From Candidatus Helarchaeota ASGARD archaeon Hel_GB_B (GTDB lineage Archaea; Asgardarchaeota; Lokiarchaeia; Helarchaeales; HEL-GB-B): 28,382 nt of DNA. Each line of letters begins with the position of its first letter. The first letter of the stretch is position 1. The translations under genes and the position numbers were made by a program. The stretch covers positions 1 to 28,382 of the forward strand of contig SUPR01000042.1 in NCBI GenBank assembly GCA_005191425.1, read 5' to 3'. The notes under the pieces were generated by a model. It was not told the DNA's origin. It did no database searches and saw only the letters and a list, made by a program, of their open reading frames with translations. This document shows, piece by piece, positions 18,252 through 25,484 of this stretch.

Positions 18252-18779
18252 TTGAGCAAAAATGGAATACGTAATAAGGCAGAGGATAAGATAGACCCAA
18301 AAATGATAAATTTTTATCTCAAAAAAGCGAGGTTCGCTATGCGAGATGAGGATTATAATCAGGCCGTAAAGTATTATAGGTTAGCAGCTAAATGTTCAGC
18401 AAAAGCAGGAGATACTCAAAAAGAGAAAATTTTTAATAATAGAGCAAATGAAATTATTAAAGAATATAAGTTGGAAGTAGAAGTAGAAAAAGAGAAAACA
18501 TTTAAAAAGAAAAAGGTTATACAACGTAAAAAAGAAAAAATTAGAATTACAAGTCAAAATATTTGGGGTTTTATTATAGCCATTATAATTATATTATGTG
18601 GATTAAGTGGTCTTATCTTTGAAATTATCTTTTTACCAAATTCATTAACTCTTAATGATATGTATTTTTATTGGGGTGTAGGGGCTACTATTGAAATTAT
18701 TTCAGTTATCATAATAATTTTTATTTATAAGATTTTGATAAAACCACCAGAAATTGAAGAAGAGAAAAAGAAGAAATAA
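18252..18779 (+). CDS. Hypothetical membrane protein (helical TPR/MIT-like N-terminus, two C-terminal TM helices)
   Basis: KKARFAMRDEDYNQAVKYYRLAAKCS helical motif, a charged linker and two hydrophobic segments; GGTGAT at 18241-18246. Confidence 0.7.
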   Translation: MSKNGIRNKAEDKIDPKMINFYLKKARFAMRDEDYNQAVKYYRLAAKCSAKAGDTQKEKIFNNRANEIIKEYKLEVEVEKEKTFKKKKVIQRKKEKIRITSQNIWGFIIAIIIILCGLSGLIFEIIFLPNSLTLNDMYFYWGVGATIEIISVIIIIFIYKILIKPPEIEEEKKKK

Positions 18780-18801
18780 AGTTAAAATTTTATTTAACAA
18801 T

Positions 18802-19776
18802 TTATTTTTTACCATTTACTTTTCCTTTTTTAGCAGGCTTTTCTTCTTCAGTTGTTTCAGATTCTGTTTCGTCCATAATAATTTTAGGAGCACCTTTTTT
18901 CTTTTCCATAGGTACTATTCCTTTTTTAATTTTTTCATCAGACAGTTTGTAAGTAGTTTTAGATACCATTTTAGAAGGTTCGTCTTCTTCAATTATTGGT
19001 TCAACGATATGATATTCTGAATGATAAACTTTATTTTCAAGTTCATAGATCAGTTCAATCCAAGGAGGTGGGCTAACCGGATCCCAATTTTTTATTGTTT
19101 CGAGGCAATTTTCAGGTGTTCCTAAAATATCAATGAGTTCTTTTGGAAATTCAATCATAGGTGGATATGGAAATGTAGAGAAATCAACGATTACTTGATA
19201 ATGAACTTTCATACTGGCAGATAAATATAATCTTACCCTAGTTATTGTATTATCAAGAAATTCTGCAGGGTATTGTTCCATTAATTCAGCTGCATATTGA
19301 GCAATTAAACCATCTCTTCGATATCTCTCTTCACTAGCTGCAGTAATTTTTGTTTTTTCTTCTACAGTGTGGTCTAATTTTTCAAGTTCAGCATTGGTGG
19401 CTGAAGCTCGAATTATTCTATCAAGTTCATTCTCAAATTCTTGAAGTTCATCAAAATTTACATCATGATTTGAGATATCACCTAACAAACTATGAAATAG
19501 ATTATAAGAGTAAATCAAATATTTTTCTAATTCTTTGACGGAAATATCAAGAGATCCACCTAGAATAAGAATTATGTCAGAAAAATTTGCAAAAATCATT
19601 TTTAAATCTGGTGTTCGCATTATTTTATAAGTTTTGTCCGGTTCTCTCTGAACGAATGGAGAATAATTCCGAAATAAAATTATAAATGGTTGGATGTCTT
19701 CAAATTTGCCCCAAAAATCTTTAAAAAATATTACCTTATTGTTATTCTTTTGTATAATGGAAACTAAATGAATCAC
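18802..19776 (-). CDS. Putative longin-like + E2/UEV/RWD-like two-domain protein with charged tail
   Basis: The N-terminal ~122 aa have a longin-like pattern (MIHLVSII...VIFFKDFW...ILILGGS...ELEKYLIYSYNLF...FENELDRII). Residues ~155-250 contain VIVDFSTFPYPPMIEF...NCLETIKNWDP...WIELIYELE, which resembles the UBC fold. The CDS is confident; the domain call is by eye. Confidence 0.6.
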   Translation of the reverse strand: MIHLVSIIQKNNNKVIFFKDFWGKFEDIQPFIILFRNYSPFVQREPDKTYKIMRTPDLKMIFANFSDIILILGGSLDISVKELEKYLIYSYNLFHSLLGDISNHDVNFDELQEFENELDRIIRASATNAELEKLDHTVEEKTKITAASEERYRRDGLIAQYAAELMEQYPAEFLDNTITRVRLYLSASMKVHYQVIVDFSTFPYPPMIEFPKELIDILGTPENCLETIKNWDPVSPPPWIELIYELENKVYHSEYHIVEPIIEEDEPSKMVSKTTYKLSDEKIKKGIVPMEKKKGAPKIIMDETESETTEEEKPAKKGKVNGKK

Positions 19777-19918
19777 GGTTATACACTTTAAAATTTCTAT
19801 TAAAGTATTAAGATAATTATTTATTAATGAAATCTAATTATAAATTAAAATTATTATAAAATTTATATTAATTCATTCAATTATCAAATTATCTTTATAA
19901 AAGGAGTAGAAAAATAAA

Positions 19919-21169
19919 ATGTCTGAAAAAACAATATTTGAGAGTATCAAGGAAAAAATTGATGAATTAATTCTTGGTAGACGGTATTTGATAAGTGAAA
20001 TGGGAAAGTTGAAGATTTCAGTTGATAAGATGGCTCAGGTTAATTTAGGTGATATTAAAGGATTGTTTGATGAATTTAGGACAAATGTTTCTAGTTTAAC
20101 TCAGATGGGAGCGCAATTAAACCAGATTTCAGATTTAACAAATAGTTTAAGTTTGATGAGTAATTCAATAAAAGAAATGCAGACAGCATTTTCAAGTCTT
20201 TCGGACTTGAGAGGAATTTCTGACCAGATTATGAAGAGTGCAACGCAAATTTCAAATTTACAAAATGCCTTAACAGAAATCAGAGATTCAATTCGCGGGT
20301 TAAACGAACTAAAGGAAGGTTTTGAAGCAACATTAGCAACTTTAGGAGAATTCAGAATAGCAATGAATGGGTTGAAAGAAACTATGGATAAATTAACGAG
20401 TTCTTTCGAAGGAATTGCATCATTAGCTGAACTAGGGACACTAGCTAAAACTTTAAAACCGGATATTGCAGAATTAACTGAAGCTATGTCAGGAATTCGC
20501 GAGCTGAGGTCGGCAATCTCAGATCTTGCAAAACAAACTGCATCAATTGGAGATATGAAAGTATTAACTTCAGAATTGAGAGTTGCGATGAGAGAAATCC
20601 GAGCTTCAGTTGCGGGGGCGCGGGCAGCTCCAGCACCAGTATCAACAAGTGCTCCAACACCATCAATTCCGAAACCTACAATGGTAGTAAAAAGGCCAAG
20701 CACAACTGCCAAGACAACTACATCTACTACTACAAAAGTTGAATCAAAGCCAATAGTATATTCAGCTGGCAGGACTAAACTTGAAACACCAACAGCTAGT
20801 CCAGTTACATCATCAGCTCCATCGCCTAAACCGCAAATAGCGTCCAGCGTTAAGCAAGCTGCATTACAATCTGAGGCCAAATCCGCTGCTAGTAAAGCCA
20901 AGAAAGTCCCGGATATCGTAGAAGAAGTTTTTACTTTGATTGTTCAAAGAACACAAGGTGGCGCAGATGCACATTCCTTGGCTAAAGTTATCGAAAACGC
21001 AAGAGACACAATATCTAAATCCTGGAAATGGCATCCAAGTCTTTATGAATTAGGAACATTTGCTAGAAAACTTCGTACTAATTTTAAAGAAAGCGAATTA
21101 CCAAGTCAAGAAATTATTCAATTGTTAATGCAAAAGATCGACGAATGGAAAGAGAAAATGGCTGAATAA
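19919..21169 (+). CDS. Hypothetical protein: long repeat coiled coil, Pro/Thr/Ser/Ala linker, C-terminal four-helix domain
   Basis: Long ORF with AAGGAG upstream. Amphipathic periodicity over residues ~5-233, a low-complexity linker ~234-330, and a helical C-domain with a WKWHPSLYEL motif. Confidence 0.85.
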   Translation: MSEKTIFESIKEKIDELILGRRYLISEMGKLKISVDKMAQVNLGDIKGLFDEFRTNVSSLTQMGAQLNQISDLTNSLSLMSNSIKEMQTAFSSLSDLRGISDQIMKSATQISNLQNALTEIRDSIRGLNELKEGFEATLATLGEFRIAMNGLKETMDKLTSSFEGIASLAELGTLAKTLKPDIAELTEAMSGIRELRSAISDLAKQTASIGDMKVLTSELRVAMREIRASVAGARAAPAPVSTSAPTPSIPKPTMVVKRPSTTAKTTTSTTTKVESKPIVYSAGRTKLETPTASPVTSSAPSPKPQIASSVKQAALQSEAKSAASKAKKVPDIVEEVFTLIVQRTQGGADAHSLAKVIENARDTISKSWKWHPSLYELGTFARKLRTNFKESELPSQEIIQLLMQKIDEWKEKMAE

Positions 21170-24230: not shown

Positions 24231-25484
24231 CTATTCATAAAATGATAAATAAATTTCTTCAATCTTTTTTGAAACATTTTCCCATGTCTGATTTTTTATT
24301 TTTTGATATCCATTATAACCCAGTTCATCTCTTAGTCCCGGATTTTTTAGTAGTCTAACTATTGCATTACCTAATACATTAGGCGCCCCAAATGGAACTA
24401 AAATACCGTTGTGATTATTCTGGATAATTTCCGGAGTTGCACCAATATTTGCACCAATTACTGGTTTTTTACAAGCAAATGCTTCTAAAAAAGCAATTCC
24501 ATATGCATCACTTCTTGACGGCATTACATAAATATCAGATGCCATAAATGAACTAATTTTTATTTTAATATTGTCATATGGGACAACTCCAATATTTATA
24601 ATATGTTTTTTATAATCGCTTTTTAATTTTCCTTTTTCTATATTAAATGCTTTTGTACTTGGCCCAATAAACATAAATACAACATCGGGTACTCTTTTTA
24701 TGACATATTTAATTGATTTTAAAATGTGGATTGCACCTTTTTCATAATTTTTATATCCACAGAATAGTACTAATGGCTTTGAATTTATCCCGAATTTTTG
24801 CCTGAGTTTTTTGGGTTTAGCTCTTGTGAATTTTTTAATATCAACACCCATTTTTATCAATTTTATCTTTTTATCAAACCTTTTAATACCACCATGATTG
24901 ATAATGTATTGCGCCTCTAATTTACTACAAACCAAAATCATGTCAAAAAATTTCAAAATTCTTAATAAAGAAGGATTTTGATATCTTTTATTAGCAAAAT
25001 GAAAAAATGGAGTAGTTAAGGTTGGGACCCTTTTCATTTTTCCAGCTATTAATGCAAATAAATTTGTAGCAAATGGAAAACACGTAGAATGTATAATATC
25101 TGAATTGATGCTAAGAAGAAATTCTAATAAATCCGGGCAATATGGCCCATTAATCAAAAGATTATATGCATCAATTAGGGGGTTCCTGAACCGCCCAATT
25201 TGTTTTAATAATTTTTTAATCGTTTTATACTCGATTAAAGGAAATTTATTTATAAAATAAGAATATTTAATAGGAAATCTAAATATGGGGACATTATTTA
25301 TTTGAGAATATTTACTTTCGATTATTTTCCCCTTAGGTGTCCCAAAAGCTCTGAAATCTAATGCATTAGAACATAAAACTTTGATTTTATGTTTTTCTAT
25401 TAGATGTTCGGAAATTTTTTGAAAATATAATTCAGAACCAGATATCGCAGGAAAATAACGCTGGACTACATGTGATATATTCAT
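24231..25484 (-). CDS. GT4 (GT-B) glycosyltransferase
   Basis: RYFPAISGSELYF, KMGVD, YKNYEKG, VMPSRSDAYGIAFLEAFACKKPVIG, NGILVPFG. Confidence 0.9.
   Translation of the reverse strand: MNISHVVQRYFPAISGSELYFQKISEHLIEKHKIKVLCSNALDFRAFGTPKGKIIESKYSQINNVPIFRFPIKYSYFINKFPLIEYKTIKKLLKQIGRFRNPLIDAYNLLINGPYCPDLLEFLLSINSDIIHSTCFPFATNLFALIAGKMKRVPTLTTPFFHFANKRYQNPSLLRILKFFDMILVCSKLEAQYIINHGGIKRFDKKIKLIKMGVDIKKFTRAKPKKLRQKFGINSKPLVLFCGYKNYEKGAIHILKSIKYVIKRVPDVVFMFIGPSTKAFNIEKGKLKSDYKKHIINIGVVPYDNIKIKISSFMASDIYVMPSRSDAYGIAFLEAFACKKPVIGANIGATPEIIQNNHNGILVPFGAPNVLGNAIVRLLKNPGLRDELGYNGYQKIKNQTWENVSKKIEEIYLSFYE

Follow-up and report, generated by a model that had tools for sequence, protein, structure and literature searches.

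A longin domain joined to a predicted non-catalytic E2-like domain in a protein family of the Helarchaeales

The locus and its reading frame

The window, meaning here the whole stretch of 28,382 nucleotides from Candidatus Helarchaeota archaeon Hel_GB_B that was analysed, has a G+C content of 25-33% and carries on its minus strand an open reading frame (18802-19776) of 324 codons, uninterrupted from a GTG. The gene, whose product is called P0001, is transcribed away from a second gene that encodes a coiled-coil protein. The features of the two genes and of the spacer between them are as follows.

18802..19776, minus strand: whole CDS of protein P0001, 324 aa plus stop, GTG start (open frame, orthologues)
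19399..19776, minus strand: longin domain, residues 1-126, predicted order beta-beta-alpha-beta-beta-beta-alpha-alpha (AF2, Pfam, Foldseek, VIA)
19342..19398, minus strand: helical linker, residues 127-145, of lower confidence (pLDDT ~73 at 131-140; AF2)
19018..19341, minus strand: predicted pseudo-E2 domain (UBC-fold, UEV/RWD-like), residues 146-253 (AF2, Foldseek, VIA)
19159..19173, minus strand: F202-P-Y-P-P206, the family [YF]-P-x-x-P motif with E2-type spacing; P203 and P206 nearly invariant (alignment)
19105..19107, minus strand: codon of Cys224, the sole Cys of P0001, not conserved (alignments)
19063..19086, minus strand: W231-D-P-V-S-P-P-P238; the W and P236 nearly invariant (alignment)
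18985..19020, minus strand: acidic motif S253-EYHIVEPIIE-E264, opening the tail (orthologue alignment)
18805..19017, minus strand: disordered Lys/Glu-rich tail, residues 254-324 (pLDDT 48-68; AF2)
19777..19918, no strand: AT-rich divergent spacer of 142 bp between the P0001 gene and the coiled-coil gene
19919..21169, plus strand: linked coiled-coil gene, 416 aa, candidate partner (linkage in several lineages)

The GTG start was backed by orthologues that begin at the matching aligned position (e.g. MIHIV, VIHTT). Since orthologues at 42-77% identity were found, one in all seven genomes of the order, the gene was taken to be real and under selection. Two plus-strand ORFs that overlap it (18754-19020 and 19350-19538) were regarded as artefacts that arise antisense to an AT-rich gene. 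The other genes of the window are archaeal and include those of an AMP phosphorylase, proteins of the amino-acid-kinase, hydantoinase and methanofuran types and a GT4 glycosyltransferase. These neighbours are metabolic, and no trafficking or ubiquitin context was found among them in the window.

Searches with the whole protein sequence were also performed. No Pfam family was matched besides Fuz_longin_1, the single match in a direct PDB sequence search was a designed binder (E 0.22), and every score in an ESM Atlas feature search (<=0.77) was at the noise level.

The N-terminal longin domain

P0001 was modelled by AlphaFold2 using an alignment of 85 rows. The mean pLDDT was 86, and the block means were above 93 over most of residues 1-250, 89 at residues 101-110 and 73-82 at residues 131-150; within the longin domain they were 89-98. 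Analysis of the model by DSSP gave strands at residues 2-9 and 14-20, a helix at 29-43, strands at 49-54, 59-64 and 68-74, and helices at 80-98 and 108-125. In residues 1-126 this order is that of the canonical longin topology, and in residues 1-125 it corresponds to the longin-like pattern that an initial annotation, made from the sequence, had described for the first ~120 amino acids. The Pfam model Fuz_longin_1 (PF19036), which has a cut-off of 26.1 bits, scored 28.3 bits with residues 1-135 alone and 25.5 bits, just under the cut-off, with the whole protein.

Longin structures headed the lists of both fold searches. Foldseek returned zeta-COP (E 2e-5) as well as sigma-adaptins, VAMP7, Sec22b, BLOC-3 and MON1A. 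VIA, a search independent of Foldseek, returned VAMP7 with a Z of 14.3 (rmsd 2.4 over 117 residues), SYBL1 with 14.1, the CPLANE chain 7q3d_C with 13.9 (19% identity) and Sec22 with 13.7, followed by a Lokiarchaeial roadblock-longin protein at 10.3 and Mon1 chains at 9.9-10.7. The VAMP7 and CPLANE matches and the Fuz_longin_1 score agree with the fold claimed by the initial annotation, and on the predicted structure we firmly assign the N-terminal domain as a longin domain. Its nearest affinity in sequence is with the LD1 type of Fuzzy/Mon1/HPS1.

The C-terminal domain

Residues 146-253 were also modelled alone (AF2, 83 rows) and gave a pLDDT of 88. The predicted topology consists of a long alpha1, four strands, two short helices and one long helix. 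With this domain the best 50 rows of Foldseek were E2/UEV chains (top E 2.6e-3, TM 0.54). The list of VIA was headed by the UEV-like domain of VPS37A (Z 9.8, rmsd 2.3 over 98 residues), and below it came E2s at ~9, FANCL at 8.8, the RWD of GCN2 at 8.7 and 8.4 and the UEV of TSG101 at 8.4; lower rows held RWDD1 and Mms2 (8.3), the UEV of Vps23 (8.0), a chain of Fts-Hook3-FHIP1B, BRE and Knl1. These Z values of 8-10 are moderately above the background of 7-8 stated for VIA. Because they are near background, the fold call rests on the consistency of the match lists together with profile links. Nearly all of the best 50 rows in both searches were UBC, UEV or RWD proteins, which bears out the E2/UEV-like fold that had been proposed for this part of the protein.

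The profile links were as follows. In Pfam the isolated C-domain of P0001 had no match to any model of the UBC superfamily (UQ_con, UEV, RWD). Among the 83 isolated C-domain pieces of the family only BRE was found, weakly and in six members (best 8.6e-4), and RWD (PF05773) matched neither P0001 nor any of the pieces; the UQ_con and RWD matches obtained with whole family proteins stem from other copies within array proteins. Searched against the PDB, the family profile gave marginal matches to a Plasmodium chain deposited as a putative E2 (E 0.018) and to BRE (E 0.27), in alignments that span the YP..P and L..LKNW segments. The same profile found the first copies of tandem-array proteins with an iE of ~1e-11 to 1e-13, and these first copies themselves pass the Pfam UQ_con model (46 bits). 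The last copies of the arrays, which pass RWD, were found weakly in two of the nine arrays examined (P0022 and P0013; iE ~0.006).

In the alignment of 83 C-domain sequences P203, P206, W231, P236 and E247 are nearly invariant. The segment starting with W231-D-P is, as we read it, similar to the 'W-S-P' segment that precedes the crossover helix of E2 enzymes. The spacing of the RWD motif is YPxxxP, and [YF]-P-x-x-P and W-[DN]-P are of the E2/UEV type. The family has the [YF]-P-x-x-P spacing, and the YPxxxP spacing of RWD proteins was not found in it. Judging from the model and the profiles, we regard the C-domain as a UEV/RWD-like pseudo-E2 and assign it to no single Pfam family.

Homologues and relatives of the C-terminal module

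A word-indexed search returned seven close relatives at 42-77% identity. The contigs that encode relatives of P0001 bear the label Candidatus Helarchaeota or Helarchaeales, and a full-length orthologue was present once in each of the seven genomes of the order (six genera, three families). A profile of the orthologues was also run against a sample of ~200 genomes from the whole phylum. No full-length match was found there beyond the order; the search gave many matches to the C-domain, in ORFs mostly of 550-600 aa, and two to the longin domain only. An exhaustive phmmer search over 1.84 billion representatives yielded 83 proteins at E <=1e-3. The two-domain (N + C) architecture was seen in ~25 of these (representatives at 50% identity), and the remaining matches have the C-terminal module alone, frequently in tandem. 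Remoter fusions of longin and pseudo-E2 domains in other Promethearchaeota were also obtained with phmmer, for example P0044 from a MAG labelled Promethearchaeota. In the named database records that were consulted, proteins of the fusion family are entered as 'hypothetical protein'.

The tail of P0001 (~70 aa) bears a conserved SEYHIVEPIIEE motif in which S253, E254, H256, E259, P260, I261 and E263 are invariant among the orthologues (S-E-x-H-x-x-E-P-I-x-E). Orthologues at 42-46% identity carry at the C-terminus a zinc ribbon, CPNCG...C..CG, which replaces the tail of the P0001 type.

Seven genes with the pseudo-E2 module were found in the Hel_GB_B genome, that of P0001 included. Two of the products (C178 and C152) have three copies of the module and a C-terminal RING-like finger, in a FANCL-like layout, one (C144) has two copies, and three of ~255 aa (C179, C115 and C123) combine the module with a coiled coil and a helical tail. 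The genome has ~25 longin ORFs, and P0001 is the only fusion of a longin with a pseudo-E2 domain. A canonical cluster lies on contig C128, with genes for an E2, ubiquitin (C128:60827-61027), a UEV-type protein (~260 aa) that matches UQ_con, and Vps28. A further E2 is encoded on C17, and SAMP/ThiS-like Ubls on C61 and C142. Among Asgard proteins more widely, the inactive E2 fold is reused in a larger group that includes P0001, where it is combined with a RING finger, a coiled coil or an ABC module.

Outside the orthologues, the closest relatives of the C-domain were found in pseudo-E2 arrays with a terminal RING-like finger, where they are the middle copies (phmmer 1e-12 to 1e-16). Because the nearest relatives sit in RING-bearing arrays, the C-domain may be tied to the ubiquitin system. 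The C128 cluster and, in one lineage, the gene of a ThiS-type Ubl directly after the orthologue were counted in favour of this tie as well. Another explanation is that it is a pure RWD module for dimerisation or scaffolding, comparable to those of kinetochore RWD proteins, GCN2 or RWDD1 and without a tie to ubiquitin, and that P0001 is simply a subunit of a longin complex. The domain is short (~108 aa) and has an alpha-4beta-alpha-alpha layout, the RWD domains of GCN2, RWDD1, RWDD2 and Knl1 scored Z 7.1-8.7 in VIA, and paralogues in the genome join the module with coiled coils, as in kinetochore RWD proteins. However, the [YF]-P-x-x-P spacing is that of E2 and not the YPxxxP of RWD, the W-[DN]-P segment is like that of E2 and UEV proteins, and the position of the nearest sequence relatives within RING-bearing arrays speaks against a scaffold with no ubiquitin tie. 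We consider the RWD explanation possible but unlikely.

The linked coiled-coil gene and the neighbourhoods of distant homologues

The protein encoded divergently from P0001 has at its N-terminus a conserved motif, TIFExIKEKIDE..GRRYLISE.GKLK; the repeated coiled coil that follows is joined by a Pro/Thr/Ser linker to a helical domain of ~90 aa, also conserved, at the C-terminus. Genes of this family adjoin, or lie within 1-6 kb of, genes for fusion proteins that are only ~20-35% identical to one another. At locus L001 the coiled-coil gene is adjacent and divergent to a longin + pseudo-E2 gene, and in a Helarchaeota MAG the locus tags of the fusion and the coiled-coil protein follow one another directly (ACTSPY_06440 and ACTSPY_06445). 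The distance is 3.2 kb in L027/L036 and 6.3 kb in L033, and in L023 and L026, two loci of Promethearchaeota with fusions ~20% identical to P0001, the coiled-coil gene is one to two genes off. It was not found in the ~2-16 kb flanks of the orthologues of ~45% identity (L002/L034 and L035), nor in the flanks of L025, a member of a subfamily of 250 aa. The linkage is recurrent, not universal, and it offers the strongest hint of a partner. A complex prediction with residues 1-260 of P0001 and the full coiled-coil protein gave a score of 0.00, which weighs neither way.

Other neighbours were noted at more distant members of the family. In L027 a ThiS-type Ubl ending in AGG is encoded 4 bp after the orthologue. 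In a run of genes conserved among distant loci, the fusion gene comes with two genes for proteins of unknown family (~450 and ~145 aa), one for a small winged-helix protein, two for coiled-coil proteins and one for a Roadblock/LC7 protein. A Rag/Arf-type GTPase is encoded near the operon of distant family members.

The longin domain could be the active part of a GEF or GAP platform for a Rag/Arf-like GTPase of the genome, built on the model of the LD1 of Mon1-Ccz1 or Fuzzy-Inturned, with the pseudo-E2 domain only stabilising the complex. Such a platform is consistent with the Fuz_longin_1 match, with the CPLANE and Mon1 chains (18-19% identity to the N-domain, Z 9.9-13.9 in VIA), and with the Roadblock/LC7 gene in the operon of distant members and the GTPase gene near it. 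P0001 has one longin domain, in contrast to the three of TLD GEFs; the tri-longin layout of Rab GEF subunits (Mon1, Ccz1, Fuzzy, Inturned, HPS1/4) is absent, as the rest of the AF2 model is a UBC fold and a disordered tail. There is also no GTPase gene near the P0001 gene in the window, and the strongly conserved surface motifs of the pseudo-E2 domain (W231, P236, E245 and E247) suggest that this domain has a ligand of its own. The GEF/GAP role therefore appears doubtful for P0001.

We also considered whether P0001 and its divergent neighbour could form an alternative ESCRT-I-like module, in which a UEV-type receptor is combined with a Vps28-C-like domain that contacts ESCRT-II. The UEVs of TSG101 and Vps23 scored Z 8.0-8.4, the linkage to the coiled-coil gene is recurrent, and Asgard proteins with Vps28-C and longin domains have been described (PMC10936438). 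However, the C-terminal domain of the neighbour, tried as a Vps28-C domain, had no Pfam match at E up to 10, including to VPS28; a genome-wide search with PF03997 yielded only the gene on C128, hhalign against the genome's own Vps28 gave a probability of 0.2, and a PDB profile search was empty. The combination of UEV, stalk and steadiness box and the ESCRT neighbourhood typical of Vps23/TSG101 were not found for the P0001 gene in Pfam and in the window, P0001 matched only Fuz_longin_1 with no sign of a steadiness box, and the canonical E2/ubiquitin/UEV-type/Vps28 cluster is located elsewhere, on C128. An ESCRT-I-like module is, in our opinion, quite improbable.

Cys224 and catalysis

P0001 contains a single Cys, residue 224 (codon 19107-19105), which lies within PENCLETIKNWDP. 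Both strings given in the initial annotation (VIVDFSTFPYPPMIEF and WIELIYELE) were found in P0001, and HPN was absent as it had stated. By eye, and within one residue of register, C-L-E-T-I-K-N-W-D-P parallels the C-L-D-I-L-x-x-x-W-S-P of E2 enzymes, and Cys224 had been taken to occupy the catalytic position of E2 enzymes. By motif register it is near this position, but a Cys is found there in only one of the 83 sequences. The most frequent residues of the column are S (13), A (12), L (11), K (7), I (6), T (5) and N (5), and Cys occurs in P0001 alone. In close orthologues it is replaced by S, A or T, and by S or A at 75-77% identity, so the conservation check that the initial annotation had itself named turned out against the Cys. 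Invariant around the column in the orthologues are PYPP, ILG, L-x-T-I-x-x-W-D-P, P236, W239 and E-L-E. An HP[ND] motif was found in none of the 83 C-domain sequences.

Because Cys is present in P0001 alone and HPN in none of the 83 sequences, a catalytic role of Cys224 was rejected. The alignments indicate that the C-domain is a non-catalytic pseudo-E2 in which Cys224 is a one-off. Two alternatives had been offered for this domain. A non-canonical conjugating module is refuted by the unconserved Cys224 and the lack of HPN in the family, and a non-catalytic module of the UEV type stands, with a UBC fold, no conserved Cys and no HPN. An active non-canonical E2-like conjugating enzyme working via Cys224 could draw on the UBC fold and on the likeness by eye to the E2 catalytic segment, but with the Cys absent from the other 82 sequences, including orthologues at 75-77% identity, HPN nowhere in the family and P0001 without a Pfam UQ_con match, it is hardly credible.

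Discussion

The best structural match to the C-domain of P0001 is the UEVL domain of VPS37A of ESCRT-I (PDB 8e22; PMC10942982, PMC11748760). Like the C-domain, it is a UBC fold of compact form that lacks a catalytic Cys; it acts as a targeting module on a trafficking protein. The two differ in that the identity is 9% and that VPS37A has a Mod(r)/ESCRT-I core instead of a longin domain. The UEVs (Mms2/Uev1 and TSG101/Vps23) and BRE/BRCC45 likewise have a UBC fold without the active-site Cys and HPN; their structural Z against the C-domain is 7.3-8.4, and the E-values in sequence are marginal (0.018-0.5). We know of no longin fusion in the UEV or BRE families. The FANCL-like arrays of Asgard archaea, publicly labelled by automatic annotation as 'RWD domain-containing protein', carry three to five tandem copies together with a RING-like zinc finger but lack a longin domain, whereas in P0001 the module is present once and a zinc finger is missing. 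The longin domain of P0001 has its topology and fold in common with LD1 of Fuzzy/Mon1/HPS1, VAMP7, Sec22b and the sigma/zeta adaptins. Unlike SNARE longins and adaptins, P0001 has no SNARE motif, transmembrane anchor or adaptin partner context.

The reading that we favour, and consider on balance probable, is that P0001 is a non-enzymatic longin + pseudo-E2 adaptor conserved across the Helarchaeota/Helarchaeales order. We class it as a new domain architecture assembled from known parts. The initial annotation had described a eukaryotic-signature fusion of a trafficking module with a ubiquitin-type one; the longin and UBC folds of this description were recovered in the models and searches, and its conjugating option was not.

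Longin domains are pairing and GTPase-docking platforms. Pseudo-E2 domains bind ubiquitin, E2s, substrates or peptides, as in Mms2, TSG101, FANCL, BRE and kinetochore RWD proteins. By analogy, P0001 would be a soluble two-domain adaptor without enzymatic activity, in which the longin domain may pair with another longin or roadblock protein or dock on a small GTPase or a coat-like partner. The pseudo-E2 domain would provide a putative protein-binding surface, either for ubiquitin, a ubiquitin-like modifier, an E2 or a RING protein, or for a peptide motif. It would follow from these inferred roles of the two domains that P0001 connects a regulatory platform of the GTPase/longin kind with a step of ubiquitin-type recognition. 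It probably works together with the product of the adjacent coiled-coil gene. It is also conceivable, although we would give it little chance, that P0001 and the coiled-coil partner are an unrecognised Asgard module that wires ubiquitin/SAMP-like recognition to a longin/roadblock small-GTPase platform. If this were true, the module would represent an archaeal link of precursor type between ubiquitin signalling and the regulation of membrane traffic, distinct from ESCRT-I.

Domains of trafficking and of ubiquitin/ESCRT systems are known to be shuffled in Asgard genomes, which gives architectures peculiar to single lineages (10.1101/2020.10.19.343400), and Asgard longin domains joined to Vps28-C and to adaptin appendages have been reported (PMC10936438). 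The longin ESPs of Asgard archaea described there, among them longin-Rag GTPase fusions, come from the same phylum as P0001 and follow the same theme of domain shuffling. The longin + pseudo-E2 architecture was not found in the available portions of this literature on Asgard multidomain ESPs (10.1101/2020.10.19.343400, PMC10936438). Work on the origins of the kinetochore (PMC6601020) recorded one RWD-like sequence from Asgard archaea. Our literature search found no paper in which Asgard archaea, RWD and longin domains occur together, and a longin + pseudo-E2 fusion was described nowhere that we found.

P0001 is a well-defined and easily expressed candidate, with its mechanism at the stage of a hypothesis. 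Asgard archaea are studied for the origins of the eukaryotic trafficking and ubiquitin systems, and P0001, as predicted here, unites one hallmark domain of each of these systems in one conserved polypeptide. Its ligands, if found, would show whether recognition of the ubiquitin type was tied to the longin/GTPase machinery before eukaryotes.

Domain arrangements of P0001 relatives

The pseudo-E2 domain of the window protein P0001 is found in several other arrangements in the same genome (Candidatus Helarchaeota archaeon Hel_GB_B, G000). The paralogues at loci L006 and L008 are arrays:

G000:C178:8970-10256, reverse strand: three tandem pseudo-E2 domains, then a Cys/His-rich RING-like finger
G000:C152:14060-15205, reverse strand: three tandem pseudo-E2 domains, then a Cys/His-rich RING-like finger

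Both have a FANCL-like layout, which is shared by the related proteins P0012, P0013, P0019 and P0023 with 4-5 pseudo-E2 copies. The paralogues at loci L007, L009 and L011 were found to carry an N-terminal coiled coil followed by a single pseudo-E2 domain and a helical tail, a layout reminiscent of coiled-coil plus RWD kinetochore proteins. These and a further ORF, at locus L010, are as follows:

G000:C179:9173-9952: coiled-coil plus pseudo-E2 paralogue, ~255 aa
G000:C115:14735-15514: coiled-coil plus pseudo-E2 paralogue, ~255 aa
G000:C123:25316-26074: coiled-coil plus pseudo-E2 paralogue, ~255 aa
G000:C144:20983-21810, forward strand: two-copy pseudo-E2 ORF, reaching the contig end

Variation was also observed in the tail and in the longin domain. 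In the orthologues P0006-P0008 (42-46% identity; loci L002-L004) the tail is lengthened by Pro-rich repeats (PKGIPYP) and ends in a CPNCG...C..CG zinc ribbon, which is missing from P0001. A phmmer search with P0001 gave ~14 tandem matches to the longin-domain core (P0001 residues ~20-97) in P0087, a protein of 2059 aa which, judged by its sequence, is a giant longin-repeat array.

Gene neighbourhoods

The divergent neighbour of P0001 (window 19919-21169, forward strand) is a conserved coiled-coil protein with the N-terminal motif TIFExIKEKIDE..GRRYLISE.GKLK. This motif and a C-terminal domain of ~90 aa recur beside longin plus pseudo-E2 genes in distant Asgard lineages, and the C-terminal domain is present in a second gene of the same genome (G000:C99:16828-17718). 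No similarity of the neighbour to Vps28 was detected by sequence.

In distant Promethearchaeota a conserved gene run surrounds the longin-pseudo-E2 gene (L026:4128-11106, also L023, L029 and L032), with these members:

~450-aa protein, no family assigned
~145-aa protein, no family assigned
longin-pseudo-E2 gene
small protein with an HTH_45 winged helix
two coiled-coil proteins
Roadblock/LC7 protein
two further small proteins

At L026 a Rag/Arf-type GTPase lies ~4 kb upstream. Genes of the 250-aa longin plus pseudo-E2 subfamily (P0015 and P0017) are flanked by two kinds of neighbour at both loci (L025:1145-4494, L031:1702-4804): one codes for a GT4 glycosyltransferase, the other for an ArsA/Get3-type ATPase. 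The window also holds a GT4 gene (24231-25484).

Next to the orthologue P0009, from another Helarchaeota genome, a ThiS-family gene starts 4 bp downstream:

L027:6077-6367, forward strand: ThiS-family protein, 96 aa, C-terminal end ...PPVAGG

This protein is a ubiquitin-like modifier of the SAMP/Urm1 type with its di-glycine end exposed.
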